From the IMG/VR virus record IMGVR_UViG_3300021963_000037, positions 75,481 through 139,480 of that record: DNA of 64,000 nt; one strand, given 5' to 3'. Origin of the DNA: a virus. Under the pieces are notes generated by a model. That model worked only from the letters and a program-made list of their open reading frames with translations. It made no database searches and was not told the origin of the DNA. Of the stretch, positions 2,758 through 27,520 are shown in pieces. The translations under genes and the position numbers were made by a program. The first letter of the stretch is position 1. Every line of letters begins with the position of its first letter.

Positions 2758-3192
2758 ATGGAAGTTGAAACTAAAGTAAATAAATTGCAGCAGTTAGATG
2801 AGTATCTAGCTACTCAAAGGACTGAATGGACTAGTAAAATTCGAGGTGTTGCAGATGATTTAAAACATGGTAACAATCTCCCAGAAGTCTCATCTTACGC
2901 ATTAAGTTATCGACAAATTTTAGTCGATATGATTGCATCTATTAGTTCTAAAATCAGAACTCAAAAAGCAAAAATAGATCGAGAATATAAATCAGCGTGG
3001 GTAGGATATTATCAATATGATTATAAACTATCTGATGGACAACGCGCTAAATTTATTGAGGCTGACTTGTCAGAAGATTATCAAGTACAACAATTATTAG
3101 AGATGCAAAGAGATTTCTTTAATGGTTCTGTAAAAACTCTTGATAACATTGGATTTGCAATTAAGAATCGAATTGACATGAAACAGTTATAA
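2758..3192 (+). CDS. uvsY: Recombination mediator UvsY-like
   Basis: Helical 144-aa protein with YY..Y, FIEAD and FAIKNRID C-terminus, adjacent to UvsW. Confidence 0.75.
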   Translation: MEVETKVNKLQQLDEYLATQRTEWTSKIRGVADDLKHGNNLPEVSSYALSYRQILVDMIASISSKIRTQKAKIDREYKSAWVGYYQYDYKLSDGQRAKFIEADLSEDYQVQQLLEMQRDFFNGSVKTLDNIGFAIKNRIDMKQL

Positions 3193-3207
3193 AAATATTA
3201 GAATGTT

Positions 3208-4716
3208 TTGGTAATAACATTAACAGACGATAATAGGTTTCTAAGAATCGACGAAGCAAGTGAAATTGAAATTGAACAAATTAATTTAAGTCTCACTAAA
3301 AGAATTGACGGATGGAGATTCAACCCCTTAGTTAAGAGGGGAGTATGGGATGGTTACGTCTCGTATATTAAAGATAACAAATGGATTCCTGTAGGTTTAT
3401 GGAGATATGTCATGGAAACCTGCAAGGAATACAATTTTGATTTAAAACTAAATGGTATTACCAGATTGTTTGATCGAAATATTTCAGCCGAAGGATTTGA
3501 AACTTGGGCAAATGCATTTTTTGATGGCTATCATCTTCAACCGAGAGATTATCAAATTGATGCATCTTATAATATCTTAAAATTTAGAAAGTGTCTTGCT
3601 GAATTGGCAACATCTGCTGGAAAAACGATGATTTCGTTTATGACAGTTGCTTATATGCTAGAGAAACAGAAGGCACAGAAAATCCTTTTTATAGTACCTA
3701 ACGTTTCACTGGTTGTACAAGCTAGCGAAGACTTTGTTGACTATAATTGGAGAAACCAAGTGAAGATACGTATCCAACAAATCTACGCAGGTCAGAAAAT
3801 TAAACCCAATTCAAATGTCGTAATTGGTACATATCAATCCCTAATTAAAAAAGAAAAAGAATATTTTGATGACTTTGATGCTGTTATTGTTGATGAAACA
3901 CATAAAGCAAAATCACAGTCAATTAAAGATATTTTAGCAAAGTGTAGAAATGCACAATATAAATTTGGTTTATCTGGTACAATTCCAAAAGATGGTACAC
4001 TAGATAAACTAACACTAATGTCCCAAACCGGCCCGGTAATTACTGAAGTAAAAGCAGCTTTCTTACAACAAGAAGGGCATATTGCAAAATGCCGAGTTAA
4101 GGTTATTGAAATGGATTACGCTCCCGCTGCAACAAAGCAAGCATTTATGGAGTTAGCACAAAATAGATATGAAAGCAAAGATGTTTTCCAACTCGAACAA
4201 AATTATATCATCAACAACAAAGCACGCCTTGACTTTGTTGTCAACGTTATTTCCAGAATACCAAGGAATTCTCTTGTACTTTTCCACAGAATCGAACATG
4301 GTAAAAAATTATACGATGCTCTTCGCCAAAGAAGCCAAAAGAAGGTTTATTATGTTGACGGAGGGACAGATTCTGATATTCGAGAAGAATACAAAAAGAA
4401 AATGGAAGCTGGTGAAGAGATCGTCATCGTTGCCTCTTATGGCACGTTTTCTACCGGAATCTCAATTAAAAAGATTCATAGCGTATTCTTCACAGAATCA
4501 TTTAAATCAGAAGTCATCATTAGACAATCAATTGGTCGAGGACTTAGACAACATGAGTCCAAAAAAGAGGTAATTATTGTAGATTTCGTTGATAATTTAT
4601 CAACACCTGATTGGGAATGTTACCTATTTAGACATGGTCAAGTTAGACAACAAATCTATAAGCAAGAAAAATTCAATTTCGACATCAAACAGGTCACATT
4701 TGATGGGTCTGAATAA
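3208..4716 (+). CDS. uvsW: SF2 DNA helicase UvsW
   Basis: WDG, RDYQ, ATSAGKT, DETH, GLSGT, QSIGRGLR motifs. Confidence 0.93.
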   Translation: MVITLTDDNRFLRIDEASEIEIEQINLSLTKRIDGWRFNPLVKRGVWDGYVSYIKDNKWIPVGLWRYVMETCKEYNFDLKLNGITRLFDRNISAEGFETWANAFFDGYHLQPRDYQIDASYNILKFRKCLAELATSAGKTMISFMTVAYMLEKQKAQKILFIVPNVSLVVQASEDFVDYNWRNQVKIRIQQIYAGQKIKPNSNVVIGTYQSLIKKEKEYFDDFDAVIVDETHKAKSQSIKDILAKCRNAQYKFGLSGTIPKDGTLDKLTLMSQTGPVITEVKAAFLQQEGHIAKCRVKVIEMDYAPAATKQAFMELAQNRYESKDVFQLEQNYIINNKARLDFVVNVISRIPRNSLVLFHRIEHGKKLYDALRQRSQKKVYYVDGGTDSDIREEYKKKMEAGEEIVIVASYGTFSTGISIKKIHSVFFTESFKSEVIIRQSIGRGLRQHESKKEVIIVDFVDNLSTPDWECYLFRHGQVRQQIYKQEKFNFDIKQVTFDGSE

Positions 4717-4741
4717 TGGACAAAGTTCATTAAATCATACG

Positions 4742-4749
4742 AATATATA
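4742..4749 (+). promoter_or_regulatory. Putative late promoter AATATATA
   Basis: RATATATA box recurring upstream of virion genes. Confidence 0.6.
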
Positions 4750-4778
4750 AGATAAGACTGTAAAAAAATATTAAAACA

Positions 4779-6995
4779 ATGGAACTAAACAAAATTACAT
4801 CGTTTAAGACTTTCTCAGAATTAAAATCTCAAAAGGATGCAGTTAAAACTGAGCAAGAAAATAAGACGAAAAGAGTTAAATCTTTAGAGAAAATCTCTTC
4901 TATTTTAGATGAATTGGAAATCAACGATATGTCTGAATTAGACGAAGAGAAGAAAAAAGCGTTATATGCTAAACTATTTAGTGAAGATCGTGCTGAAGAA
5001 ATTGAAGCAGAAATCGTTGCTAAAGGTAAAGAAAAAGATGAGTCTGACGAAGTTGGAGACCTTATAAATAAAGGTATTGCTGACGAAGTTGAAGAAGATA
5101 AAGCTGAAGATATCGAAGACGATATTAATAAATTAGGAGAACCTAAAGAAGAAGATCCTAAAGATGGTGAAGAATTAGAATCTGAACTTGATGAGGCTAA
5201 AGTTACATTAGATGCAATGGAACCAGACGAAGAAGGTCTTGTTAAATTCTGTAAAAAGAAAGGCATCAAATGGAAAATTGTAAATATGAATGGTCCAGCT
5301 GCTAATTACCCAGAAGTTGAGTACATTGGTAAAAAGAAGGATCTTGAAACAATGATTCAAGATTTTTGGGGTAAAGATAGTGGTTTAGAAGAGTTTATCG
5401 AAGAATCTATTGTTTCTGAAGCTCGTTCTATTAATAAGATCCAAAATGACTGGACCAAAGTAACAGCTGGTATGGCTGAACTTGCTAAACAATGGAAAGC
5501 CGCTGAAGGTGATGCAAAAGCTGCATTACTTGCTAAAATGAAAGAAGAAACTGCTAAGAAAAAAGCTTTAGAAGCTGAATTAGACGATGCAGTTACTGGT
5601 AAAGATAAAGATTTGGAATTAGTAGTTACTGAAGGTAATGCTTTTACTGGAGCCTTATTTGCTGCTAGAAATAAAGGAGAGAAAACATTTGAATTTAACG
5701 GTAAAACTTATAATGTTCGTGGTTCTAAAGTTAATGAAGAAGACGATGAAGTTAAAGAAGCTGTTGAAGTTGAAGAAGGTAATGCTTTTGGAGATGCTGT
5801 TAGAAAAGCTAAAGAAGCTGGAGAGAAAGAATTTGAATTTGATGGTAAAACATACAAAGTAGAAGAAGCTTTAACTGAAGGTTCTCATGGTATGGCTAAA
5901 AGATTACTTCAAGAAATTATTGATGGTAATACTTCAAGAGCAGAAGGTACTAAAATGTCTAAAGAGTTAGCTGCACATTTTCTAACTTGGGTTGAAAGTT
6001 CTCCATTCGGAAAGAAAAACGGAAACTTACCATTAGATATGTTGATTAAAGCATCATTTAACTGGGGTATTGAAAGAGGTTTAGATCCTAAATTAAAAGG
6101 TGAATTATCAAAATTAAAAGAAACTGTTAAAGAATCTAATGAAATCGAAGAAGGTAATGCTTTTGGAGATGCTGTTAGAAAAGCTAAAGAAGCTGGAGAG
6201 AAGGAATTCGAATTTGACGGTAAGAAATATAAAGTTGAAGAGTCTAAACACAATCCATCTGTTAAAGTGGTTGTAGAATCTGTAAATGAAGCAAAGCAAT
6301 TTGATAAAGATTATGCAGATATGGAAACTTCTATTAAAAGAGGTATTGGTTGGATCGATCCTGAATATACAGCAGATACTTGGGAAAATTCATCAGACAC
6401 TATAGATTTTGAATTAGTAAGTTCTGAAATCTATAAAAGATTAATCAAAGCCGGTTTATTATGGACATCTGAAGATGGCGAAACAAAAGATAAACAAATA
6501 AAATCTTTAAAAGAATTAGGTATTAAAGAATCAGTTGTTAATGAAGCTGAAATTAAATCTGAAGACGAATTTAAAGATTATGCAATGACTGTTTTAAAAA
6601 AAGCATTTGGCGACGAATTTGATGAAGCTAAAGCTGGAGAAGTAGTTGATGGTATTCTTAAAAAATGTGATGGTGATTTCGGTGCAGCAGTTGGTATGTT
6701 GACAAGTTCTCTTGGAGAATCTGTTACTAATGAAGCAATAGACACTAAATATTGGGCAGATTACAACACTGATACTTCTGGTCATGGAGATCCAGCAAAC
6801 TCAATTAAATTAAAAGTTTTTGATATTGCTTTTGAAGAAGCCGTAGAATCATGGAATGATGAAGCAGATGGTGAAGAAAATCAAATCAATGACAAACAAG
6901 CTGATAAGATTGAAAGATTAGCAAAAGAATTCTTTAGAAAAGAAAAATGGATTTCAATTAATGTCATTCACGCAATGATTGCACAGGAATCCTAA
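4779..6995 (+). CDS. Acidic modular putative internal head protein (polyprotein-like)
   Basis: N-terminal KITSFKTFSE capsid-targeting-like motif; many (L/I/V/T)xE-(A/G) sites; three NAF...GEKxFEFxGKxY modules. Confidence 0.6.
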   Translation: MELNKITSFKTFSELKSQKDAVKTEQENKTKRVKSLEKISSILDELEINDMSELDEEKKKALYAKLFSEDRAEEIEAEIVAKGKEKDESDEVGDLINKGIADEVEEDKAEDIEDDINKLGEPKEEDPKDGEELESELDEAKVTLDAMEPDEEGLVKFCKKKGIKWKIVNMNGPAANYPEVEYIGKKKDLETMIQDFWGKDSGLEEFIEESIVSEARSINKIQNDWTKVTAGMAELAKQWKAAEGDAKAALLAKMKEETAKKKALEAELDDAVTGKDKDLELVVTEGNAFTGALFAARNKGEKTFEFNGKTYNVRGSKVNEEDDEVKEAVEVEEGNAFGDAVRKAKEAGEKEFEFDGKTYKVEEALTEGSHGMAKRLLQEIIDGNTSRAEGTKMSKELAAHFLTWVESSPFGKKNGNLPLDMLIKASFNWGIERGLDPKLKGELSKLKETVKESNEIEEGNAFGDAVRKAKEAGEKEFEFDGKKYKVEESKHNPSVKVVVESVNEAKQFDKDYADMETSIKRGIGWIDPEYTADTWENSSDTIDFELVSSEIYKRLIKAGLLWTSEDGETKDKQIKSLKELGIKESVVNEAEIKSEDEFKDYAMTVLKKAFGDEFDEAKAGEVVDGILKKCDGDFGAAVGMLTSSLGESVTNEAIDTKYWADYNTDTSGHGDPANSIKLKVFDIAFEEAVESWNDEADGEENQINDKQADKIERLAKEFFRKEKWISINVIHAMIAQES
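5772..6240 (+). repeat. Intragenic duplication: 56-bp identical stretch at 5772-5827 and 6147-6202 (third diverged copy from 5631)
   Basis: GAAGAAGGTAATGCTTTTGGAGATGCTGTTAGAAAAGCTAAAGAAGCTGGAGAGAA occurs twice. Confidence 0.9.
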
Positions 6996-8334: not shown

Positions 8335-10188
8335 ATGGCACTACAAAAACTTAGAGATTTCTATCAATCTTCGAACACTGAAGTATTCAATGACTTAATG
8401 AAGAATAAAGTTGTTGTGTCAGAAAAGATAGCAGCACCGTCTCTTTATGTTAGAAGAGGTTTAAATGGTTTTGAATTTTTTAAAAATGGAACCAGCGAAG
8501 AGCTATCGATTGTTGATAGAACTTTAGTATCTTTGTATGAAACTGCAATTAAATATTTCCAAGGACTTTCTCCAGAAATTAAACAATCGATGCCAATTGA
8601 TTGGAAATTTGGATTTGAGTATCTTCCGGAAGCAGATGCATCGCCTTTAAATTATGATTCAGTTCCATTAAACTATTTAATACTTACACATATCCAAGTT
8701 ACTGGAGATAATGGTAAACCTAGAAAGATTATCAATGATACACATGTCCTAAATAAATGGGCAAAAACTTTTGAGGTTCAACAACCACCTGTTCTTTTTG
8801 AAGGAATGTTAGATGTAAATCAACAAACCAGATTAAGAGATTTGGTATCTATGAGTAACGAACAATACCAAAAAGAATTCTCTGACAAATCTTTTACAAG
8901 AGAAGCATTTCATATCTTTAATAGTAATTTATCAAAATCTACATTAAATGATAATTTAGATAAAGAAATTGATGGTTTAATTATCTCATTTGTAGAAGGT
9001 ACAAAAATCAAATCATTTAAAATGGAAGCCTTTGATCGTGTAAATGAATCAAAGGATGATAGAGAGTCTAGCCATATGTATCAGATCACAATGGTTGACT
9101 TATTAGAATTCTTAAATGATTTTAATTTAGACGAAATTGAATTAAACGAGGAGAACTCGGATTTACGATACATTGAATTAGTTTCAGCTGTCTACAATCA
9201 ATATCTAAACAAAAACGCATTTAAATATGTTGGAGCTAAATTTGATTCAGCTAGCTTTGCTACTGCAGAATGCTTCCAACTTAATACACAATATATTAAG
9301 AACGAAACAACATTAAAGTATCTTGAGAACAATGTTCTTGCTGAGCTTTATAAAATTGTTGTTGGTAGTTTAAGAAAGAAACGAGTTAAAGAGAGTTCAA
9401 TTATTACTGGACTTTTATTTACTCAATTAAATGAAATCGTAGAAAAGATCGAACAAAAAATCTTTGTTGAAAATGCTGATGAACATGCAGTATATGATTT
9501 CAAAAATTATATCATTCATGACAGAGTAGCAAACAGTCAAAAAATTACTGAAGCTCTTAAGATTGATTATCCTGCACAAGGAAAAGAGAAAGTAAATATC
9601 TTTGTTGGTAGATTCCAACCTTTTACTTTAGGACATGTTAAAGTTTTAGAAACTCTTTATAAACAAAACGGTTTTCCAGTTATAGTATTCTTAGTTAAAG
9701 CAAAAACTGTTAAGAAAGAGGATGCTGTTAAACGTCCTTATGATGTTGAAACACAAATTGAAATGTTTAACAATGTACAGAGAGAATACAAATTCTTAAA
9801 GCAAGTTATTGTTGTTCCTTCTGCTGCAATTGATGTTATGTTCAATCAACTTAGACCAAATTACGAACCAGTTCTTTGGGGTACCGGAACTGACCGAATG
9901 AAAGCATATGGATATATGGTTAATAATGACAAGTATCGTGATGAACTTGGAGTTTTACCAGAATTTGGTTTATATGAAATCCAAAGAGGAGATGATGATA
10001 TTTCCGCAACAAAAGTTAGACAATCTTTACTTGATAACAACGTTAAAGAATTTAACAAAATGACCCCAAACTCGCTTCACTCTATGTTTAATGACCTTAA
10101 ACAAAAATTAGAGACTTCTATTGCTAATGAATCAGTAGAACATGATGAAGAGTTTTTAACATTCGAACAATTTATAAATAAGATATAA
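8335..10188 (+). CDS. Fusion of an RNA-ligase-like domain and a HIGH-superfamily nucleotidyltransferase (NMNAT/cytidylyltransferase-like)
   Basis: N-half SEKIAAP, FGFEY, PPVLFEG, IDGLII; C-half VGRFQPFTLGH, GTDR, ISATKVR. Confidence 0.7.
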   Translation: MALQKLRDFYQSSNTEVFNDLMKNKVVVSEKIAAPSLYVRRGLNGFEFFKNGTSEELSIVDRTLVSLYETAIKYFQGLSPEIKQSMPIDWKFGFEYLPEADASPLNYDSVPLNYLILTHIQVTGDNGKPRKIINDTHVLNKWAKTFEVQQPPVLFEGMLDVNQQTRLRDLVSMSNEQYQKEFSDKSFTREAFHIFNSNLSKSTLNDNLDKEIDGLIISFVEGTKIKSFKMEAFDRVNESKDDRESSHMYQITMVDLLEFLNDFNLDEIELNEENSDLRYIELVSAVYNQYLNKNAFKYVGAKFDSASFATAECFQLNTQYIKNETTLKYLENNVLAELYKIVVGSLRKKRVKESSIITGLLFTQLNEIVEKIEQKIFVENADEHAVYDFKNYIIHDRVANSQKITEALKIDYPAQGKEKVNIFVGRFQPFTLGHVKVLETLYKQNGFPVIVFLVKAKTVKKEDAVKRPYDVETQIEMFNNVQREYKFLKQVIVVPSAAIDVMFNQLRPNYEPVLWGTGTDRMKAYGYMVNNDKYRDELGVLPEFGLYEIQRGDDDISATKVRQSLLDNNVKEFNKMTPNSLHSMFNDLKQKLETSIANESVEHDEEFLTFEQFINKI

Positions 10189-14332: not shown

Positions 14333-14626
14333 ATGAGTATTTTAGAAGAAGCAGACAAAATCGTTAATCACAGATCAGAAGAAGCAGATCGTAACTATGG
14401 ACCTTTCTCAGAAGGTATGGATCGTGCAGCAATGATTTTTCAAGGAATGACTGGAATCCCAGTAACTGGAGAACACATGTTTAAAGCACTAGTTGCTTTG
14501 AAATTCTCTAGAGAATCTTATAACCATAAGAAAGACAATTTGCTTGATGCAGTTGCCTATATTCAAGGATTAGAGAATTACCTTAATGAGATTGAAGAAT
14601 CTCGCCCAATCAAATCAAATGACTAG
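14333..14626 (+). CDS. DUF6378-like all-alpha protein (putative nucleotide pyrophosphatase)
   Basis: ILEEA..IV..R...YG...ALKFSRE...KKDNLLDAVAY pattern. Confidence 0.7.
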   Translation: MSILEEADKIVNHRSEEADRNYGPFSEGMDRAAMIFQGMTGIPVTGEHMFKALVALKFSRESYNHKKDNLLDAVAYIQGLENYLNEIEESRPIKSND

Positions 14627-15668
14627 TATCTACGATATTAAAGAAAAGTTAGCTGGTAAAAAGATTGCAATTGATGATGTTGTAACAACTTACAGCTCGA
14701 AAAAAGAATCACATAAATCTGCGTGGGCATATTTACTTATGTCCCAATTAAAAAGTCTAGGATTGGATGTTACTGTTTTAACAAAAGACGGTAACATTCA
14801 TGATTTTGACGTTTGGATGGTAGCCTTACCAATGGAATTCCAAGGTAGTTACAATCTTTTTGGCGGTGCAGGAGATGAACCAGCTGCCAGAATCCAGAGA
14901 TTTATTGATTTTAAAGGAGATGTGTATTGTCTTAATCGAGAAATGCCAGATGTTGGAGCATTTGCTCAATCTCGTATGAATTCTTGTACAGACAATTGGA
15001 AATCATTAGACGTTGCAATCCTGTCATCAAGGTCAAAATCAGTTGAGACAATTGATTTAACCCTTAACTCAGATACCTTTGTACTAGGCGATAGCCATTC
15101 AGTATCTGCTTACGTTCCAGGAGCAAACATTTCCAGAAATGATGGTAAAACATTATTTGGAGTTATTAAAGAAGGAATGCAGAATTATATTCCTGCTGGA
15201 ACAAAACACATAATCACATATTTTGGTAACATTGATGTTAGACACCATTTGTGCCGCCAACCAGATCCAATTGCAGCAACTGAATCTCTAGTTAAAAACT
15301 ATGTTGAACACTTAAAAAGTTTAGGCATGGAAAAGATCAGTGTTATGCAATTACTACCAATCGACCACGAAGAGAGAAGAATTCCAAAGACTGGATTCTA
15401 TAAAGGAACACCTTTTTATGGAAATTTAGAAAAAAGATTGGAAATTTGTCGAATTTTTAACAATAAGCTGAGTATATATCTAAGTGAGGCCGGATACGAA
15501 TTTATCCAATGGCCAAGCGAATGGTACAAGCTAAGCCCAAAAGACTATGCGGACATTTATATGGAGAAACCAGGATCGGTGCACCTTTCACGAAATTATT
15601 ATCAATATGATTTCGAAACTGGCCAAAAGAATCCAGCATTAAAACCAAAAGTCACGAGTTTATTTTGA
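14619..15668 (+). CDS. Chimera of a beta-glucosyltransferase-like N-terminal domain and an SGNH hydrolase/acyltransferase domain
   Basis: N-half KIAI...LGLDVTVL...DFD...NLFGG parallels T4 BGT N-domain; C-half LGDSH, YFGNID, GSVH; ends VTSLF. Confidence 0.6.
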   Translation: MTSIYDIKEKLAGKKIAIDDVVTTYSSKKESHKSAWAYLLMSQLKSLGLDVTVLTKDGNIHDFDVWMVALPMEFQGSYNLFGGAGDEPAARIQRFIDFKGDVYCLNREMPDVGAFAQSRMNSCTDNWKSLDVAILSSRSKSVETIDLTLNSDTFVLGDSHSVSAYVPGANISRNDGKTLFGVIKEGMQNYIPAGTKHIITYFGNIDVRHHLCRQPDPIAATESLVKNYVEHLKSLGMEKISVMQLLPIDHEERRIPKTGFYKGTPFYGNLEKRLEICRIFNNKLSIYLSEAGYEFIQWPSEWYKLSPKDYADIYMEKPGSVHLSRNYYQYDFETGQKNPALKPKVTSLF

Positions 15669-15716: not shown

Positions 15717-16895
15717 ATGAGTAAAATTAAAGTTGCAATTATTGGTACAGGAAACTGTGCTAAGTCTCTAGTAGAAGGAGTACAATTCTACACGGAAAAT
15801 CAAGCAAATATCGATGGTATGATGCGTAGCGATATCGGTGGATATGGTGCAAAAGACATTGAATTTGTTTGTGCATTTGATATTGATGAGCGTAAAGTGA
15901 ATCAACCATTAGGTGTTGCATTGAAGCAACGTCCAAATTCTGCATGGGATATCGTTCCAACTATCAATTCAACAGCTCCAGTTTATGAAGCTCCAGTTAT
16001 TGATGGTTATGCATTATTAATGGACGCATACCCAGAAGCAAATCGTTTCTTGGTTTCTGAAGAGTTGAGAAATTCAACTGAGACAAATCGTACTGAATGG
16101 ACTGATAAAAAAGACAGACAGTGGAAAGACAAAGTTATTGCTCAATTAAAAGAGCACGAAGTTGAAGTATTGATTAACTACTTACCAGTAGGTTCTCAAG
16201 CAGCAACAGAATTTTGGGCAGAAATCTGCTTAGAAACTGGAATTTCTTTCGTAAACTGTATTCCAGTATTTATTGCATCTGATCCGGCATGGGAGAAACG
16301 TTTTATCGACGCAGGTATTCCATTGATTGGTGATGATATGCGTTCTCAATTTGGTGCATCTATCTTGTCTCAAATGTTACAAGAACTTGCATTCGAAAGA
16401 GGTCACGTAGTAAGAGCACACATTCAACGTAACGTTGGTGGTAACACTGACTTCTTGAATATGGAAGACAAAACTCGTTTGAAATCTAAAAAGATTTCTA
16501 AAGAGAACGTAATCCGCGCTCAAAATGATATTCGTGGAATATCAACAGAAGGTTCATTCTTACATGCAGGTCCTTCAGAGTACATCTCATACTATGGAGA
16601 TAACAAAGTTGCTAACTTCCGTTTAGAACTTGAAGGATTCGGTGGAGCACCAGTTATATTTGATGCTCAACTATCTGTACAAGATAGTCCAAACTCTGCA
16701 GGAGTCGTAATCGACGCTCTTCGTTATCTTAGAGTTGCAAGAGAAATGGGAATTGTTGGTGCTTTAAGAGGACCATCAGCATTTACTCAAAAGACACCAC
16801 CTCAACAAATGATGTTTGTTGATGCTGTTCAAGAATGCGAAGCTTTAGCAAATCGTAAACTTACTAAAGTTACGGAGAAACAAGTTAAAGCTTAA
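15717..16895 (+). CDS. ino1: myo-Inositol-1-phosphate synthase (bacterial/archaeal type)
   Basis: GTGNCAKSLVEG, NYLPVGS, FVNCIPVFIAS, GDDMRSQFGA, NVGGNTDFLN, SKKISK, DSPNSAG. Confidence 0.95.
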   Translation: MSKIKVAIIGTGNCAKSLVEGVQFYTENQANIDGMMRSDIGGYGAKDIEFVCAFDIDERKVNQPLGVALKQRPNSAWDIVPTINSTAPVYEAPVIDGYALLMDAYPEANRFLVSEELRNSTETNRTEWTDKKDRQWKDKVIAQLKEHEVEVLINYLPVGSQAATEFWAEICLETGISFVNCIPVFIASDPAWEKRFIDAGIPLIGDDMRSQFGASILSQMLQELAFERGHVVRAHIQRNVGGNTDFLNMEDKTRLKSKKISKENVIRAQNDIRGISTEGSFLHAGPSEYISYYGDNKVANFRLELEGFGGAPVIFDAQLSVQDSPNSAGVVIDALRYLRVAREMGIVGALRGPSAFTQKTPPQQMMFVDAVQECEALANRKLTKVTEKQVKA

Positions 16896-16905
16896 TTAAT
16901 CCAAC

Positions 16906-16936
16906 AAGATGGAGAGTTTTGCTCTCCATCTTTTTT
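16906..16936 (+). terminator. Intrinsic terminator after ino1
   Basis: AAGATGGAGAG-TTTTG-CTCTCCATCTT followed by T run. Confidence 0.85.
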
Positions 16937-16948
16937 CAATTTAGAAAG

Positions 16949-17326
16949 ATGAAAAATCAAGAAATATTTGCATATGATTTTGATGGTGTAGTTTCATTAG
17001 GAATTAGACCAAGATTTAGTGATGATGTTATTATCACAGGTAGATGTCAAGAAGAGGCGCCACACGTTTTTGAAAAATTAGCAGAAATGGGAATCTCTAC
17101 AAATGTTTACTTTAATCAAATGACCTTACAAGAAAGGGGAAATCATACAGTAGAAGCTAGAATTTTCTCTGGTCGCCATAAAGCTAGAACTATTCATAAC
17201 CTTAAAGAAGAAGGAATTGATGTTGTTCGTTTCTTTGATGATGACGAAGTTCAAATTGCAGTTATTAAACAATGGCATCCTAATTTAGATATTGTTCATG
17301 TTGTATCAACTCTTGTAGAAAAATAA
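16949..17326 (+). CDS. Minimal HAD-superfamily phosphatase
   Basis: DFDGV, IITGR, HK, FFDDD motifs; ATG 16949 lies downstream of terminator. Confidence 0.85.
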   Translation: MKNQEIFAYDFDGVVSLGIRPRFSDDVIITGRCQEEAPHVFEKLAEMGISTNVYFNQMTLQERGNHTVEARIFSGRHKARTIHNLKEEGIDVVRFFDDDEVQIAVIKQWHPNLDIVHVVSTLVEK

Positions 17327-17335
17327 AATTAATCA

Positions 17336-18358
17336 ATGAAATTCGGAATATTAAATATCTACATCAATACATCATGTAATACAAATCGAGCAAATGGATT
17401 AGAAATCTATTATCTTCGAAAAGCATTACTCGAGGCAGGACACGAAGTGTCTATTATTGGACATAAAAATTTAAGAAATGCCGACCAAGAATATTATGTA
17501 GATGCAAATGAAGCCGAATGGGAAACTTATGATGGTATATTCATTCAATTAGCAAAAGATAATTTCTTTGGTGGTGGATTAAAACCTCATACAGTTGCAA
17601 TTGTTGAAGGTATTGCAAAAGCAAAGAACAAAATCTACAATCTTGCAACTGATCCAATGTTTCCACCAATTAATCCAGCTAGATCTTTAGCTAGATTTAA
17701 TTTATGTCAAGATTATGTTGATGTATGGGATGACCTAATCGAGGACTCGATTCAAATCTTTCCAGGAAAAGACATTAAGAAATTTAACGGATGGAAGAAG
17801 GGAAATGTAATGAACTTCAACTTATTCGGATATATTTTTAAGAATCTATTTACTGAAAGAGAATTGGCTAATCCAACCTTATTTCAAGGAGAAGATACTA
17901 AAAAATGGGATGTTATCTATTTCGGTAGAAACAGAAAAAGGTATCGTGAAAGCATGCTACAAAAATATATTCCAAAAGATACTAGAAATTTATTAGTTGG
18001 ATATAAAAGTAAAAATGTACCATCAACTCAAATAAATCCAGTTTCACATGACGAGATGATGTATCTTGTTAATCAATCTAAAGTTAGTCTAATTATTGGA
18101 GACGAAGAACATTTAGATAATGTTGTAACATATCGTTTTTATGAAACTTTAGCTTCTAATTCATTAGCAGCAATTCAAATTGAATACGATCCTAACAAAG
18201 AGCTTATTCAAGACCCTGTACTTAGAAAGGTATTATATGTTAAAAATGCCGAAGATGTTAAAGTACTAACTGAATTATATTCAAAGGATTTAATTGATCG
18301 TCAAAAACGAGAATTGGCCAGAATATTTAGTGAAATTAACAAACCTATAGAATTATAA
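17336..18358 (+). CDS. DNA beta-glucosyltransferase homolog (T4 BGT-like, GT-B fold)
   Basis: NFFGG, LATD, DVIYFG.NR..YRE, LIIGD, TYRFYETLAS align with T4 BGT NFFGG, LFTD, DVIYGG.FR..QRE, LIIGD, TLRVWETMAS. Confidence 0.85.
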   Translation: MKFGILNIYINTSCNTNRANGLEIYYLRKALLEAGHEVSIIGHKNLRNADQEYYVDANEAEWETYDGIFIQLAKDNFFGGGLKPHTVAIVEGIAKAKNKIYNLATDPMFPPINPARSLARFNLCQDYVDVWDDLIEDSIQIFPGKDIKKFNGWKKGNVMNFNLFGYIFKNLFTERELANPTLFQGEDTKKWDVIYFGRNRKRYRESMLQKYIPKDTRNLLVGYKSKNVPSTQINPVSHDEMMYLVNQSKVSLIIGDEEHLDNVVTYRFYETLASNSLAAIQIEYDPNKELIQDPVLRKVLYVKNAEDVKVLTELYSKDLIDRQKRELARIFSEINKPIEL

Positions 18359-18359
18359 T

Positions 18360-19028
18360 ATGCTTACAAAAAGTCAAAGAGAACTAAGAGCAAACTACAT
18401 AAAGTATCTTAATGCAACCGAAAGGATCGACAAAGATATGATTAAAGATTGCGTTATCCATTACATTAAACCCGAAGTAGATTATACTGATAAAGTATGT
18501 CTTGATTTAGGTGGAAACGTTGGTGGATTTACTAAATTAGCAATCGATCACGGTGCAAAACAAGTTATCACGGTAGAATGTGATGTTCGTAATTACACTA
18601 AACTTTCTGAAAGTTTTGCAGAAGAACCAAAGGCTAAAATTTTACATGCTGCAGTTTCAGGTTCTGACGAAAAAACAATTAAAATCTACAAAGGAACCAG
18701 AGGAGGTTCACATTGTTCTACATCAATCATGAAAAGAAGTACTTTCCATGACTATGATGAGGTACAAAATTTGCATATTCAAGAATTGTTAGATACGTAC
18801 AAACCAGATATTATCAAAATTGATGTAGAAGGTGCAGAGTATCAAATCTTAGAATATATCGAAGCTTACTATCCTGAAGTAATTTTTATTGAATTACACA
18901 TGGGAAAAGTAAAAGAGCATGCCCAACCAGCTATTGAAAGATTAACAAATTTATACCCAATTAATGAGGTTAAAAGTTTTGTTGTCTTTAAAGAAATTGG
19001 TGGTTACGATTGTTGGTTTAAAAAATAA
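18360..19028 (+). CDS. FkbM-family SAM-dependent methyltransferase
   Basis: CLDLGGNVGGF, VE, HAAV, IIKIDVEGAE. Confidence 0.88.
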   Translation: MLTKSQRELRANYIKYLNATERIDKDMIKDCVIHYIKPEVDYTDKVCLDLGGNVGGFTKLAIDHGAKQVITVECDVRNYTKLSESFAEEPKAKILHAAVSGSDEKTIKIYKGTRGGSHCSTSIMKRSTFHDYDEVQNLHIQELLDTYKPDIIKIDVEGAEYQILEYIEAYYPEVIFIELHMGKVKEHAQPAIERLTNLYPINEVKSFVVFKEIGGYDCWFKK

Positions 19029-19037
19029 AATAGTAAA

Positions 19038-20087
19038 ATGAGTAATATAATTGAAAGCGTAAATATGGATGTCGTAAAAGACATTGGTCGTTTCTTTAAT
19101 AAAGTAAACGAAAGAGCCCTTTATAATATGGGAGTGCTGGATAGTTATGATAGCGATGGAGACGATGCTCTTGGAGAAACTGTAGAGTATTTCCATCCTC
19201 AAATTACTCTAGATGACCGTATGAGATATATTATGGAGAACATTGTATATGCTCCAATCTCAATGGACAATATTATTTGCAATACAATTATTTCTCACTT
19301 TTATGGAGCTCGTGGAATTCACCAAGTTCTAACAAGAGATCCAAATCCAAAAACAGCATTAATTGATTTTGAAAGACTTTTAGTCGATCGAGATTATGAG
19401 AATAAAATTCGTAAGAATTTAGAAGATGCGGTTTCTTTAGGTTTACCAATTTATGGAAGTACGGAATTACGTACAAGTCTTTTTGGAGCAGCCAATAATT
19501 ATGTTGCTCAGTTAAGAAATCAACCAAGAGATGCTCATAAAATTAATATTCTTTTATGGGTAGCTTCTTTTATACCTCGAGGCATCACAGGAAGGATGGC
19601 CCAGGTTAAATCTCTAAACGAGATGTATGATATTATCTCTTCGCTTGAAGGAGTAGGACAGTACTACGGTTACCACTGTTCAACGTCTAACTCGGTAAAT
19701 CCAAGAATTCCAATCAACCATGACGAAAGATTTTGCGTACCAGGTCCTGGAGCAAGATTCACATTAGACCTAATGTTTGGAGAAGGTTGTAATATTCCTT
19801 ATGGTGATAGAGTTATTTGGTTCCGTGAAAATTACAAAGACCTTATTGGAGATATTCCTCTACATGAATCAACACATAATGTTTATGTTGATGGTAAGAA
19901 GATTTTCCAAGAAGAACAAAACGATCTTAAAACTTATGGTTGTGAAGTTGGTCTTTGTCAGTATGGCGTTTATTATCGCTTAAGAAACAATCCACATTTA
20001 ATTAGTCGTCGAAAAGTAGCAAGAACTGATAATTCAGTTATGGAATACTTTTTTAACAATAATTTTGAACAAAACTCGCTTTTCTAA
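19038..20087 (+). CDS. aGPT-Pplase1 / hmU-DNA-kinase-helical-like HhH-fold DNA base-modification protein
   Basis: LEGVGQYYGY (HhH), FCVPGPGARFTL, CEVGLCQYGVY; ends QNSLF. Confidence 0.65.
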   Translation: MSNIIESVNMDVVKDIGRFFNKVNERALYNMGVLDSYDSDGDDALGETVEYFHPQITLDDRMRYIMENIVYAPISMDNIICNTIISHFYGARGIHQVLTRDPNPKTALIDFERLLVDRDYENKIRKNLEDAVSLGLPIYGSTELRTSLFGAANNYVAQLRNQPRDAHKINILLWVASFIPRGITGRMAQVKSLNEMYDIISSLEGVGQYYGYHCSTSNSVNPRIPINHDERFCVPGPGARFTLDLMFGEGCNIPYGDRVIWFRENYKDLIGDIPLHESTHNVYVDGKKIFQEEQNDLKTYGCEVGLCQYGVYYRLRNNPHLISRRKVARTDNSVMEYFFNNNFEQNSLF

Positions 20088-20110: not shown

Positions 20111-20533
20111 ATGAAAGCAACGAGTATCAAAAACCTTTTCTTAGACGATTTCAGACATCCTTATGATTGCATGAGCTACATGCCTTACCGAATCGGTACA
20201 AATGCAGCAATGTATACTCAACAAGAATGGTCAGTTGTTAAAAGCTATGATGAATTTACCAAGTGGATTACTTTAAATGGTCTTCCTAAAATGGTATCAT
20301 TCGATCATGATTTAGCAGATGAGCATTACAGTCCAGCAATGTGCGGAGACGGAGCTGACTATCCAACTGATTTTGATGAGAAAACAGGTTTAGACTGTGC
20401 AAAATGGTTAGTTAATTATTGTATCGACAATAAATTAGAATTTCCATGTTTTGAAGTACATTCAATGAATCCAGTTGGCTCAGAACGAATTAAAAATTAT
20501 ATTCAAGATTACATCAAATTTAGTAAACAATAA
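20111..20533 (+). CDS. Cyclic-phosphate-processing receiver-like domain protein
   Basis: LFLDDFR, VKSYDEF, SFDHDL, TGLDCAKWL, HSMNPVG. Confidence 0.8.
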   Translation: MKATSIKNLFLDDFRHPYDCMSYMPYRIGTNAAMYTQQEWSVVKSYDEFTKWITLNGLPKMVSFDHDLADEHYSPAMCGDGADYPTDFDEKTGLDCAKWLVNYCIDNKLEFPCFEVHSMNPVGSERIKNYIQDYIKFSKQ

Positions 20534-20556: not shown

Positions 20557-21024
20557 ATGGCAAACATTGATAACGAATGTAAAGATTTAGAAGTAAATGA
20601 CTTCTATGATAAATCCACCACACATCTGGCGGATATAATGAATCACCAAAAAGAAATGCAAGAAAAAACTTATGGATTTGATTTTGACAATATGTCAATC
20701 AAAGACATTATGAATTTCTGGCATGTTAATACACACGCAGTAGTTGATGAAATTCATGAAATGACTGATGCTCTTGGTGGTATTAAAGATGGAGATGGTA
20801 ATGCAGTTTGGAAATATTGGAAAACAGCTCATACTAAATATGAGAACATGAAAATTTCCGATCTTTCAGAAAATGATCGTAAAGAACTTTATATGGAATG
20901 GGTAGATATTCTACACTTCTTTATAAATTATGCTGCTTCTATCGGACTAGACGCCAAAACAGCATACAATTACTACTTTGCAAAAGCAGAAGAGAATAAG
21001 CAACGCCAAAAACGAGGATATTAA
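20557..21024 (+). CDS. All-alpha dUTPase/dCTPase (T4 gp56-like)
   Basis: DEIHEM, WKYWK, EWVDILHF, KAEENKQRQKRGY. Confidence 0.85.
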   Translation: MANIDNECKDLEVNDFYDKSTTHLADIMNHQKEMQEKTYGFDFDNMSIKDIMNFWHVNTHAVVDEIHEMTDALGGIKDGDGNAVWKYWKTAHTKYENMKISDLSENDRKELYMEWVDILHFFINYAASIGLDAKTAYNYYFAKAEENKQRQKRGY

Positions 21025-22433
21025 TGTTATTAGACATCGAACAAAGAGACAAAGAGGTTATGGTTTCCTTTTATAATAAAGAAGGAGAAGTAGCTTTTAA
21101 AAGATACCCAATCAATCAATACCAAAACTGGTTTGTTTGTGATGCTAAAGATCGTGAAGCAAGTACTCAATTTAAAAATTGGGATAATCGTCCCGTTAAA
21201 TTAGGTACATCTAGACAATATAATAAGTTTTCATTGGTGTATTTTATGGATAATCTTCCTGCGAAAGACAAAGAAGAGATTTATGCATACAATATGCCAA
21301 AGACTTATTTTGTCGATATTGAGACTGAAATTGTTGATGGTTTCCCTAAAGCAGAAGAAGCTAAATCTAGAATCTTAACTTTCTCAATTATTACTCCAAA
21401 TAAAAAGACAATTGTTCTAGGATTAGAAGACCTTTCACCAGAACAAATCAGTCAAATTGAAAAAGATACTAATGAGTATTTCAAACAATTAGATTCTGAT
21501 TGGACTTTCCAATATATTAAGTTTAAATCTGAGTATGATATGGTTTATACGTTCTTGTATAAATTCATGCCTAAATTCCCAATGATGTCAGGTTGGAACT
21601 TTATCAACTATGACTGGCAATATATTGTTAATCGTTGTAAAAGATTACAAATTGATATTGCAGATTCAGCATTGACTAAAGCAGTAGATTCTACCGATTC
21701 AAGACCACTTCACATGGGTATTCTTGATTACATGCAGTTATATGACAAATATGATAAATCTGTAAAAGTTAAAGAATCAAATGCTCTTGAATATGTTGCA
21801 GGTCAAGTTCTAGGTTTTGGTAAAATTAAATACAATGGTGGTTTACAAGACCTTTATCGTGATGATTTTAAAAAGTATGTTTATTATAACGTAGTCGATA
21901 GTGTGTTAGTATATTACATTGACCAGAAATTAAAATCAATGGATGTACTTCTAACACTTGCAAATATTACACAAATGCCTCTTTATAAAGCAGCTTCTCC
22001 AGTTGCTGTAACTGAAGCATTAATTGCCCGTAAAATGGCAGAGTCTGGTTTTAGAATCGGAACTGAACAAAGATCCGACGGTAAAAAAGATACTCAATAT
22101 GCTGGAGCATTTGTAAAAGAACCTAAAGTTGGTTTCTATCGTGGAGTAAGTGCATTTGACTTTGCATCTCTATATCCTTCGATTATGAGACAATTTAATA
22201 TTTCTCCAGATGCATTCGTTGAAAAAGTTCCAGCTTCTAAAATCGAAGAACGTAGACAAGATAAAAATGTTATTGTTTGCGAAAATGGTGTTGTTTATCG
22301 AAATGAAGATTCGATGTTAAAAATGATTCTTACAGATTTGTATTCAAAAAGAAAGCAGTACAAATCTACTTCGTATGAATATTATACAAAAGCAGAGCAC
22401 TATAAAAAGCTGTTAGAAAAGAAAAAAGATTAA
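21024..22433 (+). CDS. Family B DNA polymerase, N-terminal subunit (gp43A)
   Basis: ExoI DIETE, ExoII GWNFINYD, ExoIII YNVVD, motif A FDFASLYPS; stops within the fingers. Confidence 0.93.
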   Translation: MLLDIEQRDKEVMVSFYNKEGEVAFKRYPINQYQNWFVCDAKDREASTQFKNWDNRPVKLGTSRQYNKFSLVYFMDNLPAKDKEEIYAYNMPKTYFVDIETEIVDGFPKAEEAKSRILTFSIITPNKKTIVLGLEDLSPEQISQIEKDTNEYFKQLDSDWTFQYIKFKSEYDMVYTFLYKFMPKFPMMSGWNFINYDWQYIVNRCKRLQIDIADSALTKAVDSTDSRPLHMGILDYMQLYDKYDKSVKVKESNALEYVAGQVLGFGKIKYNGGLQDLYRDDFKKYVYYNVVDSVLVYYIDQKLKSMDVLLTLANITQMPLYKAASPVAVTEALIARKMAESGFRIGTEQRSDGKKDTQYAGAFVKEPKVGFYRGVSAFDFASLYPSIMRQFNISPDAFVEKVPASKIEERRQDKNVIVCENGVVYRNEDSMLKMILTDLYSKRKQYKSTSYEYYTKAEHYKKLLEKKKD

Positions 22434-25577: not shown

Positions 25578-26324
25578 ATGAAATTACACATTGACAAAGT
25601 AGACCAAAACAATTTTATTGGTTTCGTAAACAGATTGAAACTTATTGACTCTTTTATCTATTTTAAGATTAAAGGCGATCAAGTAGTTTCTTCAGCTTAC
25701 TTGCCACAGCGAGATGCTGTGAAGCACAACGCTCTTCCACTAGGAGAGATTTTCGTAACATCAGGCGAAACACCTGAAAAAGAATTAAAAGTTGCATTTT
25801 TCGATGCTGCTAAATTAATCGAAGCATTTAAACAATTCGACTACCAAGGTATTCATGGTGAAATCGAATATATTGAAAATGATGAAGATTGCGTAGCAAC
25901 AAGCTTTAAAATCTTTAATGATGATTTAGAAATCACATTATCATGTTCAGAACCTTCTTTAGGTTACAAAGATTTAACAGAATCTCAATTACAAGGTATC
26001 TTCAATACTGAAGGATCTGATTTCGTATTCGAATTAAGTAATGTAGAAGCTGGAAAAATCAAATCTTTATTCAACTTAGATAAAGATGAAACATTTAGTA
26101 TCTCATCTTCTGATGACGGTGTTAAAATCAGCGGTAAATCATACAACAAATTAGTAAGTACTGAATTTGAAGGTGATAAAGCAAGCGTAACAGTTTATAA
26201 AAAGTATTTGAGTTTACTTGACAAAGAGGACTACAAAGCTTATGTATTCGGTAACCGCGTAGTATTACGTTCTACTGAATCTGCAACTTTATTAACTATT
26301 GCAACTTGCCAATCTGCTGATTAA
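25578..26324 (+). CDS. Probable sliding clamp (gp45-like)
   Basis: 248-aa acidic beta/alpha pattern in two halves; position directly before polymerase C-subunit; clamp loaders encoded in window. Confidence 0.6.
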   Translation: MKLHIDKVDQNNFIGFVNRLKLIDSFIYFKIKGDQVVSSAYLPQRDAVKHNALPLGEIFVTSGETPEKELKVAFFDAAKLIEAFKQFDYQGIHGEIEYIENDEDCVATSFKIFNDDLEITLSCSEPSLGYKDLTESQLQGIFNTEGSDFVFELSNVEAGKIKSLFNLDKDETFSISSSDDGVKISGKSYNKLVSTEFEGDKASVTVYKKYLSLLDKEDYKAYVFGNRVVLRSTESATLLTIATCQSAD

Positions 26325-27520
26325 TGACAATCGAAGAACTACTAAATAAACCTGAAGAGCAACTTACCAGAAACGAGCTTGAAATCTTGGCGACTCATTT
26401 TAAGAATGAGTCTGCCAAGTTTACAGCTTATGAACAAGCCGTTAAAGTAACATTAAACTCTATTTATGGAGCCTTTGGGAACCAGTGGTTCCATTTTTTC
26501 AATATCGATATTGCAGAATCTATCACATTACAAGGACAAAATGCAATCTTATATTCTGCTAAAATTCTAAACAAATATTTCCAAGAATTCTTTATTAAAG
26601 ATAAAGATATTCATCAGAAACTAAACATTAGAGTCAAGAATAGTATTCATAAAGAAGCAGTAATTTATATTGATACAGATTCGAACTATGTTCAGTTTGA
26701 AGAAATGTATGAATCTATTGAATGGCTTGGTGAAAAGATGGATATTGCAACTTTTATTCTAGCAATATACAATCTTAGAATTAAAGAATATATTTCAAAA
26801 TCATTAGATAAGTATGCTCAAAGTAGAAACACAGAAAGTTTCTTACAATTTGAACTAGAATCTATTGCTTATGCCGGAATTTGGATGGCTAAAAAGAAAT
26901 ACATTCAAGATATTGCATGGGAAGATAAGTTAAAAGAACATGAAAGATACCCTTCGCTTAAAAAAGTAAAAGTTATCGGATTTGATTCAATTCAATCATC
27001 AACACCAACTTTTGTTCGTAAAAAATTAACTGAGGCAATTCAAATCTTATTTTCTGAAAAACCAAATGCTGAAACTCTTAGTAAGATGGTTACCTTTCTT
27101 AAGAAAACTAAAAAAGAATTTAAGATGGCAAACATTGATGATATTACATTCAATAAGAGAACAAATAATATTGAAAAATATATTGTTGATGACCATATCG
27201 AATTCCAGTATGGTTCTAAGTGTCCACCTAATGTAAAAGCCGCAGGATTCTACAATTATCTATTGAATAACAATCCAAAGTACAAGAATAAGTACAAATT
27301 AATTGGTAATGGTGAAAAGCTAAGATTGTATCATTGTAACCATAAAACTTGCGAAATGTTCGCATATTTTCCTGGTGACCATCCATACGAAATTGCACCA
27401 CCAATTGATTATGAAGTACAATTTGAAAAGAGTATGATTGATCCATTGAATCGTCTTTTAGAATCAATCGGATTACAAACTCTAAACAGAAACTTAATTT
27501 ACTCGACTTCATTATTTTAA
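26324..27520 (+). CDS. Family B DNA polymerase, C-terminal subunit (gp43B)
   Basis: Motif B QAVKVTLNSIYG, ITLQGQ, motif C YIDTDS, KKKY; ends STSLF. Confidence 0.93.
   Translation: MTIEELLNKPEEQLTRNELEILATHFKNESAKFTAYEQAVKVTLNSIYGAFGNQWFHFFNIDIAESITLQGQNAILYSAKILNKYFQEFFIKDKDIHQKLNIRVKNSIHKEAVIYIDTDSNYVQFEEMYESIEWLGEKMDIATFILAIYNLRIKEYISKSLDKYAQSRNTESFLQFELESIAYAGIWMAKKKYIQDIAWEDKLKEHERYPSLKKVKVIGFDSIQSSTPTFVRKKLTEAIQILFSEKPNAETLSKMVTFLKKTKKEFKMANIDDITFNKRTNNIEKYIVDDHIEFQYGSKCPPNVKAAGFYNYLLNNNPKYKNKYKLIGNGEKLRLYHCNHKTCEMFAYFPGDHPYEIAPPIDYEVQFEKSMIDPLNRLLESIGLQTLNRNLIYSTSLF

Follow-up and report, generated by a model that had tools for sequence, protein, structure and literature searches.

The gene at positions 14619 to 15668 (+ strand) of the viral DNA analyzed here encodes a 349-residue protein in which a putative N-terminal domain resembling that of phage T4 beta-glucosyltransferase (BGT) is joined to an SGNH-fold domain, and we regard it as likely that this hybrid protein is a catalytic enzyme of hydroxymethylcytosine (hmC) DNA modification. 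The DNA, referred to below as the window, comprises 64,000 nucleotides and is the last 64 kb (positions 75,481 to 139,480) of the 139-kb IMG/VR virus record IMGVR_UViG_3300021963_000037, which is rated ~50% complete. A more specific proposal, to which we give somewhat less than an even chance, is that the protein primes hmC in DNA by acylating it, with no kinase involved, and that a partner protein encoded in the same cassette can then attach inositol. The gene has the following features.

14619 to 15668, + strand: hybrid gene, 349 amino acids, MTSIYD...KVTSLF, BGT-like N-domain plus SGNH-fold domain
14658 to 15065, + strand: N-domain (residues 14-149), Rossmann-like, presumably a remote relative of the acceptor/DNA domain of T4 BGT, with S31-H32 and NLFGG (residues 79-83) conserved
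15066 to 15632, + strand: SGNH-fold domain (residues 150-338), with GDSH at 15087-15098, GNID at 15225-15236, SVH at 15576-15584, and invariant E316, R253, and R273
15654 to 15665, + strand: C-terminal tail TSLF, a candidate sliding-clamp-binding motif

The hybrid protein belongs to a large viral family

The whole open reading frame (ORF) spans 14586 to 15668 (+ strand, 360 amino acids); initiation at its first in-frame ATG, at 14586, would make the protein 11 residues longer than described here. The start at the ATG at 14619 shares eight bases with the end of the DUF6378 gene that precedes it, and most relatives start near residue 14, a column occupied by Met in 43 of the 105 aligned family members. 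The protein matched one viral orthologous group (phrog_13881, 1.1e-57) and no family in Pfam (E ≤ 0.01) or NCBIfam, and searches of solved structures, with the family profile as well as with the cassette proteins discussed below, gave nothing meaningful, the sole matches being antibody light chains and designer repeat proteins. The family comprises 395 representative clusters at 50% identity and occurs on at least 591 viral contigs and in 43 phage records (38 from Aeromonas, 3 from Tenacibaculum, and 2 from Stenotrophomonas), the carriers including Aeromonas phages 44RR2.8t, 31, and 25. It is thus a large viral family, abundant in environmental T4-like phages. Gene context was surveyed in the best 80 related loci from these contigs, a sample biased toward close relatives.

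Conservation was counted over 105 aligned sequences, namely the window protein and 104 representative relatives. Eight residues were identical in all of them (G157, D158, S159, H160, D206, R253, R273, and E316), and four more were nearly so (H322 in 104, H32 in 101, and S31 and N79 in 99 each). The motifs of the window protein lie at residues 15-18 (KIAI), within 39-55 (YL and GLDVTVL), and at 62-64 (DFD), 79-83 (NLFGG), 157-160 (GDSH), 203-206 (GNID), and 320-322 (SVH), with VTSLF at the C terminus; because they are conserved across the aligned members, they are features of the family rather than chance strings. The AlphaFold2 model of the full-length protein displayed two domains at high confidence (pLDDT 97.1, pTM 0.93).

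The N-terminal half resembles the acceptor domain of T4 BGT

When folded by itself, the N-terminal half was again predicted with high confidence (pLDDT 96.8). T4 BGT was its best match both in Foldseek (1qkj, E 3e-3, TMq 0.53) and in VIA-align (1c3j), where model residues 14-149 were superimposed on BGT residues 1-139 with a root mean square deviation of 3.2 over 107 residues and a Z score of 6.8, a value within the range of chance best matches. Profile comparison by hhalign related the family to T4 BGT residues 1-98 (E 2.2e-5) and to the window's own BGT-like ORF (E 2.4e-6), the aligned stretches of BGT including MKIAI, YD, and NFFGG. On the basis of these model and profile comparisons we consider, with weak to moderate confidence, that the N-domain is a distant homologue of the acceptor/DNA domain of T4 BGT.

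The likeness does not extend to the glucosyltransferase machinery. The hhalign match ends at BGT residue 98, just short of T99-D100, and Asp100, which we take to be the catalytic base of BGT, corresponds to position 108 of the hybrid family, where the commonest residues among the 105 sequences are Pro (34), Asp (20), Glu (18), and Lys (9); in the window protein this position is the Glu of CLNREMPD. The model of the BGT family of GT-B-fold enzymes (PF09198; PDB 1c3j, 1qkj, and 1j39) gave no match to the full protein at E ≤ 0.01 and did not list the N-terminal half alone even at E ≤ 10. No second Rossmann domain for binding UDP-glucose was found in the protein, residues 150-338 adopting the SGNH fold instead. 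Because it lacks the UDP-glucose domain, a conserved Asp100, and a PF09198 match, the hybrid protein is not a glycosyltransferase.

The C-terminal half is predicted to be an SGNH domain with conserved catalytic blocks

Structural comparison of residues 150-338 by VIA-align returned 50 listed entries, all with Z of at least 9.0, led by 4rsh (Z 12.4, root mean square deviation 2.9 over 149 residues) and 3p94 (also Z 12.4), both GDSL proteins, and including PatB (Z 10.6), the Oskar OSK domain (Z 10.2), and OatA (Z 10.1). Foldseek gave 59 matches to the model at E ≤ 0.001, the best ones being GDSL/SGNH-family proteins, and the Atlas, used as a lead only, placed the protein in a cluster (score 0.90) with Lipase_GDSL on 41% of its members. 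The order of the elements is that of the SGNH family: the GDS serine of Block I (S159) follows strand 1 (residues 153-157), GNID follows strand 3, and the SxH motif lies near the C terminus. G157, D158, and S159 are each present in 105 of 105 sequences. Candidate oxyanion-hole residues include G203 (102/105) and position 204 (Asn in 88, Ser in 15), followed by the invariant D206, and the candidate Block II glycine, G176, is conserved in only 78 of the 105. An invariant glutamate, Glu316, stands six residues before His322 and might be the catalytic acid of the domain.

The protein shares with OatA, PatB, TesA, and the sialate and xylan esterases the predicted fold (Z 10-12.4) and the Block I Ser, and has candidates for the Block III G-N-x-D and the Block V His. 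It differs from these enzymes in being fused to a putative DNA-enzyme domain, in having Glu six residues before the His rather than Asp three before, in carrying additional invariant Arg and His residues, and in being cytoplasmic and phage-encoded. By Pfam, no AT3 or MBOAT membrane acyltransferase, the type of protein that accompanies OatA and PatB, was present among the scanned cassette genes of the window and the related loci.

These results agree with an earlier sequence-only reading of the gene, which had described a BGT acceptor domain lacking the xTD catalytic Asp, with SGNH blocks where the UDP-sugar domain would be expected. All of the motifs that it quoted occur in the ORF and are conserved in the family alignment. 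The AlphaFold and Foldseek analysis that it suggested put T4 BGT first for the N-terminal half folded by itself, as did VIA-align, with support from hhalign; the T99-D100 position is unconserved among the 105 sequences; and the SGNH assignment was borne out by the Z score of 12.4, the 59 Foldseek matches, and the conserved GDSH, GNID, and SxH blocks. The architecture as described was therefore correct.

The modified base is probably hydroxymethylcytosine

The record encodes gp32, UvsW, gp20, gp23, terminase, and a split family-B polymerase, and is that of a distant T4-like phage. Its only thymidylate-synthase homologue scored 67 bits, far below the NCBI thymidylate-synthase cut-offs, and aligned with T4 gp42 (E 2e-20) with Cys on C148 and Asp on D179. 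We take D179 of gp42 to be the residue that specifies cytosine, as in the thymidylate synthase and dCMP-hydroxymethylase literature. Asp also occupied this column in all five aligned homologues from viral contigs that carry the hybrid gene and in Aeromonas phages 44RR2.8t and 25; in the same alignment, Asn was found in the dUMP hydroxymethylases of phages M6 and Serratia 3M and in two true thymidylate synthases. The window also encodes a gp56-like protein.

20557 to 21024, + strand: gp56-like dCTPase/dUTPase (MazG-like), 31% identical to T4 gp56 over 108 amino acids (E 5e-20), present in 39 of 80 loci

The hydroxymethylase gene adjoins the hybrid cassette in 5 of the 80 loci, and in T4 b-gt adjoins gene 42. 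These sequence comparisons suggest that the base is probably hmC. 5-Hydroxymethyldeoxyuridine (5-hmdU), a base suggested by the name of the PF18723 family discussed below, was considered and dropped in view of the Asp179 and gp56 results. As a separate observation, the gp42-like hydroxymethylase gene of the record lies between genes for a ClpB-like double AAA+ ATPase and a ClpP protease (positions 3077-6956 of G000:C1); a ClpB-like gene is also directly upstream of the hydroxymethylase gene in locus L065 (15497-18427), and the record codes in addition for DnaJ and Hsp20.

The setting is similar to the T4-type hmC pathway and to that of the arabinosyl-hmC phage RB69, in which gp42- and gp56-type genes supply hmC that is modified after replication. 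Petrov 2010 (PMC2993671) noted the presence of genes 42 and 56, together with the lack of a glucosyltransferase, in Aeromonas phages 44RR, 31, and 25, and left open whether their hmC is modified further. Our searches with PF09198 likewise found no match in 44RR2.8t, phage 25, avDM9-HANS, or PTm5, whereas T4 was positive; unlike T4, phages 44RR2.8t, 31, and 25 have the hybrid family instead.

The hybrid protein is retained while its partners are exchanged

Downstream of the hybrid gene, the window contains a cassette with the following members.

15717 to 16895, + strand: inositol-3-phosphate synthase (MIPS) family gene (PF01658, 3.5e-22), adjoining the hybrid gene in 43 of 80 loci
16949 to 17326, + strand: candidate HAD-like small phosphatase, listed ORF start TTG 16919, in 41 of 80 loci
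17336 to 18358, + strand: full-length BGT-like glycosyltransferase (PF09198, 3.6e-7; phrog_7922, 2.4e-16), accessory, in only 2 of 80 loci
18360 to 19028, + strand: FkbM-family methyltransferase, in 29 of 80 loci
19038 to 20087, + strand: the partner, an aGPT-Pplase clade-1/PF18723 (HMUDK_hel) protein (3.6e-12), C terminus NSLF

Phage records use the label aGPT-Pplase clade 1 for members of PF18723, whose current name is HMUDK_hel, and the Atlas ties the family to PF18724, ADDT. A sequence search of solved structures with the partner gave nothing meaningful. Prediction of a complex between the hybrid protein and this partner scored 0.00, a result that counts neither for nor against binding.

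Cassette types were counted in those 48 loci whose downstream sequence extends for 5 kb or more. Twenty-six encoded MIPS, the HAD-like protein, and PF18723; 18 encoded X405 (a family of 400-410 amino acids) and a pyridoxal phosphate (PLP) enzyme; 3 had X405 alone; and 1 had neither, so that in 47 of the 48 the hybrid protein is accompanied by a member of either partner family. X405 directly follows the hybrid gene in 21 of these loci. Its mean column identity is 78% over 12 sequences (loci L048-L083, e.g., L056:11197-12426), and it gave no match in Pfam or PHROG and nothing meaningful in a profile search of the PDB. An initial hhalign comparison had indicated kinship between X405 and PF18723, which was rejected as an artefact of a mixed alignment: taken singly, five fusion C termini were X405-like and one was PF18723-like, and hhalign between the two partner families detected no relation. 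The PLP enzyme of the X405 cassettes (298 amino acids) matched phrog_7093, "threonine dehydratase" (2e-41), a label shared by M6 gp52. Variable accessory genes encoded a TET-associated glycosyltransferase, other methyltransferases, LOG-like and CitG-like proteins, and UDP-galactopyranose mutase with a family-2 glycosyltransferase.

Both partner families also occur fused to the hybrid protein. It is N-terminal to PF18723 in P0058 and in ORF233c of Aeromonas phage 44RR2.8t, the Aeromonas phage fusion proteins being 795 amino acids long; fusions to X405 were found in P0007, P0010, P0022, P0023, and P0055; P0031 unites FkbM, PF18723, and the hybrid in one protein; and in P0106 a weak glycosyltransferase-like stretch follows the hybrid. 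On a quick tree of 81 hybrid proteins the cassette types were clustered and required at least four switches, which indicates that the hybrid protein persists while its partners are exchanged. The cultured Aeromonas phages differ in their neighbors as well: in 44RR2.8t (L001, 4369-5892) a sodium:solute symporter gene adjoins the PF18723 fusion, which is the sole candidate hmC-modifying enzyme found in that phage, and in phage 25 (L087, 3773-5954) UDP-galactopyranose mutase and X358, a 358-residue protein that matched its own PHROG only and showed no hhalign relation to either partner, precede the hybrid. These different neighbors suggest that different groups are attached.

No kinase was found to prime the base

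In the thymidine pathways, according to Lee 2021, a P-loop kinase primes 5-hmdU and an AADT enzyme then carries out the substitution; the M6 scheme in the same paper runs from activator to transferase to PLP decarboxylase. The X405 and PLP cassettes may mirror the M6 scheme by analogy. SP10 gp186 is listed in Table 3 of Lee 2018 as a kinase fused N-terminally to aGPT-Pplase1. Because the fusion of the hybrid protein to PF18723 parallels that arrangement, the hybrid occupies the architectural slot of the kinase.

Using M6 gp54 as the query for a kinase acting on 5-hmdU in DNA (5-HMUDK), we detected no match in the record of the window or in 44RR2.8t, phage 25, and PTm5, whose genomes are complete; the controls, M6 and Serratia 3M, were matched. 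The M6 gp54 and Serratia 3M kinase queries together gave no matches at E ≤ 10 in all ORFs of the record and the 80 loci. Neither the hybrid protein nor the uncharacterized cassette proteins possess a Walker A motif, and the hybrid had no phmmer match to kinases.

The system would share with thymidine hypermodification the post-replicative priming of a 5-hydroxymethylpyrimidine followed by substitution, along with PF18723, a PLP enzyme type, and a MazG-type neighbor. It would differ in its cytosine-derived base, the lack of a detected P-loop kinase, the SGNH type of the presumed primer, and the cyclitol-type donor genes. We propose, by analogy, that the hybrid protein is a functional counterpart, and not a member, of the 5-hmdU DNA kinases.

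A shared C-terminal tail may point to the replication fork

Among the 141 non-nested + strand ORFs of the record with at least 60 amino acids, 7 end in LF, compared to 0.52 expected from composition; none of the 91 minus-strand ORFs does so. These seven include the C-terminal half of the polymerase (..STSLF), a FEN-type exonuclease (..IKLF), RNase HII (..ESLF), the hybrid protein, and its partner (..NSLF).

26324 to 27520, 46043 to 47263, 2508 to 2747, and 30603 to 31046 of the window, and 29117 to 29746 of the record (G000:C1): the five other LF-ending ORFs

Of 79 related loci, 63 encode a hybrid protein with an LF ending. In the 32 loci with PF18723, both it and PF18723 end in LF in 24, and in at least 5 of the remaining loci the two tails change together (e.g., SSLESFFE with ATLxDF..). 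The T4 gp43 tail, ASLDFLFG, binds the gp45 clamp. By analogy, the LF tail is probably a lineage-specific sliding-clamp-binding tag, and its presence in both proteins is indirect evidence that the hybrid and its partner work on DNA at the fork. The other two of the seven LF-ending ORFs are small, of 79 and 147 amino acids, and their products may be unrecognized replisome proteins.

Proposed acyl priming of hydroxymethylcytosine

Our starting points are the folds of both domains, the conservation of the catalytic blocks, the neighboring and fused genes, a hydroxymethylase of the cytosine type, and the tail common to several proteins; from these we infer a substrate, an acyl donor, an acyl transfer, an order of steps, and a product. 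The BGT-derived N-domain would hold the DNA and its flipped-out hmC. The SGNH site, formed by Ser159, His322, and Glu316 with a Gly and Asn204 as the oxyanion hole, would take an acyl group from a host donor, probably acyl-CoA, through an acyl-serine and place it on the 5-CH2OH of hmC, so that the resulting 5-acyloxymethylcytosine carries a leaving group. The partner, here the protein encoded at 19038-20087, would displace that group with the final substituent. In the window the substituent would most likely be inositol, as myo-inositol or another cyclitol of this kind, produced by the neighboring synthase together with the HAD-like phosphatase, and in the Aeromonas phages it is possibly imported. 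Once attached, the cyclitol would be decorated by the FkbM methyltransferase and by the BGT-like glycosyltransferase, with the clamp-binding C-terminal tails keeping the hybrid and its partner at the replication fork, on newly replicated DNA.

Priming is assigned to the hybrid protein and substitution to the partner because the hybrid is constant, is N-terminal to PF18723, has an intact Ser-His apparatus, and occurs where no kinase was found. O-acetyl, O-succinyl, and O-phospho activation of serine or homoserine are interchangeable strategies in nature, and acyl transfer suggests itself, by analogy, as the natural priming chemistry for an SGNH enzyme.

Several points weigh against this proposal. 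The structural likeness of the N-domain to BGT is weak, its Z of 6.8 being one that chance best matches can reach and its Foldseek E value being only 3e-3. In the C-terminal half the canonical DxxH Asp is missing, position 319 being Q, K, R, or G, and Pfam Lipase_GDSL fell below significance (E 0.065; 13.8 bits versus a cut-off of 23.6), so that by sequence models the protein belongs to neither the BGT nor the SGNH/GDSL family. No gene that would supply an acyl donor was found in the cassette, and we infer acyl transfer, donor, and CoA binding alike. The kinase searches used two queries, and the record of the window is only about half complete. The clamp-tail reading depends on an analogy to T4 gp43 that is drawn from general background. 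It could also be the partner that primes and the hybrid that transfers, and a sugar-related role is possible because of the glycosyltransferase-like stretch in P0106 and the full BGT-like gene in the window.

In the second half of the sequence-only reading, a DNA-directed acyl-transfer or esterase site tailors a sugar or cyclitol on DNA. The site itself fits the predicted folds, the invariant Ser and His blocks, the hmC context, and the replisome-type tail; tailoring is the less likely part. The hybrid protein would O-acylate or de-acylate a group already on the base, in the manner of the glycan-acting SGNH enzymes PatB and OatA and the carbohydrate and sialate esterases that its fold resembles, and typical tailoring enzymes, namely the BGT-like glycosyltransferase and FkbM, are in the window cassette, and the P0106 fusion has a weak glycosyltransferase-like stretch. 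The hybrid is constant, however, while the attached group must differ among cassettes with inositol genes, with PLP and X405, with UDP-galactopyranose mutase, or with a symporter; the BGT-like gene is present in just 2 of 80 loci; and in 44RR2.8t nothing was found besides the PF18723 fusion and the symporter to prime or attach a group. A common step on hmC itself better explains a protein that is constant across cassettes with differing donor genes, and we consider tailoring unlikely.

A comparably unlikely explanation is that the hybrid is itself the group transferase, its SGNH pocket binding a polyol or amino acid and substituting the flipped hmC while the partner primes, flips, or processes. 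BGT-type enzymes are transferases onto hmC, the invariant pocket residues H160, D206, R208, H210, R213, R253, and R273 are unusual for lipases and could bind a polyol phosphate, and the lack of a relation between the two partner families by hhalign would allow the shared chemistry to lie in the hybrid. Direct displacement, however, needs no invariant Ser-His nucleophile, hmC would offer no leaving group unless a priming enzyme acted on it, and in the thymidine pathways the transferase has been proven to be AADT, the sister clade of PF18723 (Lee 2021). A role away from DNA, on a small molecule, a nucleotide, or an envelope glycan, with the gene in the cluster by synteny only, is highly improbable: SGNH proteins act mostly on lipids and glycans and several family-2 glycosyltransferases are encoded elsewhere in the record, but the hybrid is fused to the DNA-base-modification family PF18723, has N-domain homology to BGT, is linked to gp42- and gp56-type genes, and has a tail common to polymerase, FEN, and RNase HII that covaries with that of its partner.

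Other genes of the window

The MIPS gene product scored 287 bits against TIGR03450, below the cut-off of 638, and matched PDB entries 1gr0 (2.3e-79) and 6k96, a five-membered-cyclitol-phosphate synthase (4.1e-47). Directly after this gene comes a strong terminator-like hairpin (16906-16932) with a stem of 12 bp and a T run behind it; because the TTG listed as the start of the HAD-like gene falls within this element, ATG 16949 is the more likely start. The DxDGV, TGR, K, and DD motifs of the HAD-like protein, which we take to be HAD-type, are invariant in 14 orthologues. No match was found in family libraries or the PDB with either the single sequence or a profile, so the HAD assignment relies on these motifs. 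Two further genes flank the cassette members described above.

14333 to 14626, + strand: DUF6378 gene, immediately upstream of the hybrid gene, syntenic in 67 of 80 loci
20111 to 20533, + strand: cREC_REC (cyclic-phosphate processing receiver) domain gene, between the partner and gp56-like genes, in 5 of 80 loci

A search for DUF6378 in T4, 44RR, phage 25, PTm5, and Serratia 3M gave no match in any of them and is hence uninformative. A gene for a 617-residue cytidylyltransferase-like protein (8335-10188) was considered as a source of CDP-inositol and rejected, since the product resembles NMN adenylyltransferase and is part of the general synteny; its NMN-adenylyltransferase-like domain is C-terminal, after ~400 other residues, and the gene is upstream in 28 of 80 loci. 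The family-B DNA polymerase is encoded by two genes (21024-22433 and 26324-27520) ~3.9 kb apart, with both ribonucleotide reductase subunits and a 248-residue ORF between them. A promoter scan gave 40 sites, no better than the 37.8 in shuffled sequence.

Implications for phage DNA modification

Our literature searches, which covered papers but not the supplements of Lee 2018, Lee 2021, and the glycosyltransferase papers, turned up no account of the hybrid family and no DNA base bearing inositol; metagenomic gene families listed in such supplements may include it. Searches pairing SGNH with hydroxymethylcytosine, and inositol-1-phosphate synthase with phage DNA modification, found nothing, and those on bacteriophage inositol and DNA hypermodification mentioned inositol solely for glycosyltransferase structure matches. 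The broadest form of our proposal, which we put forward as rather doubtful, is that base O-acylation is a phage leaving-group strategy, in which a clamp-tethered BGT/SGNH hybrid acts first and modular partner enzymes then exchange the ester for myo-inositol, so that an ether-linked, sometimes methylated cyclitol-cytosine is formed (amino-acid-derived groups in other cassettes), and that in Aeromonas phages 44RR, 31, and 25 it accounts for how hmC is modified.

If this proposal were correct, the hybrid would be a serine enzyme of the SGNH type whose substrate is a nucleobase within polymeric DNA, and it would represent a second, kinase-free means of priming 5-hydroxymethylpyrimidines, the cytosine counterpart to thymidine hypermodification. 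The product would be a cyclitol-bearing DNA base, so far unreported; because an inositol adduct is isobaric with glucosyl-hmC, surveys that rely on mass only could take it for a hexose. By calculation, inositol on hm-dC (257.10) would give 419.15 Da, in line with the nominal mass reported for hexosyl-hmC, and FkbM methylation would raise this to 433. The modification of hmC in the three Aeromonas phages 44RR, 31, and 25 would be identified, and the occurrence of the family in cultured Aeromonas phages makes the question raised in 2010 (PMC2993671) testable. New DNA modifications bear on restriction evasion, on phage therapy design, and on DNA-labelling tools.

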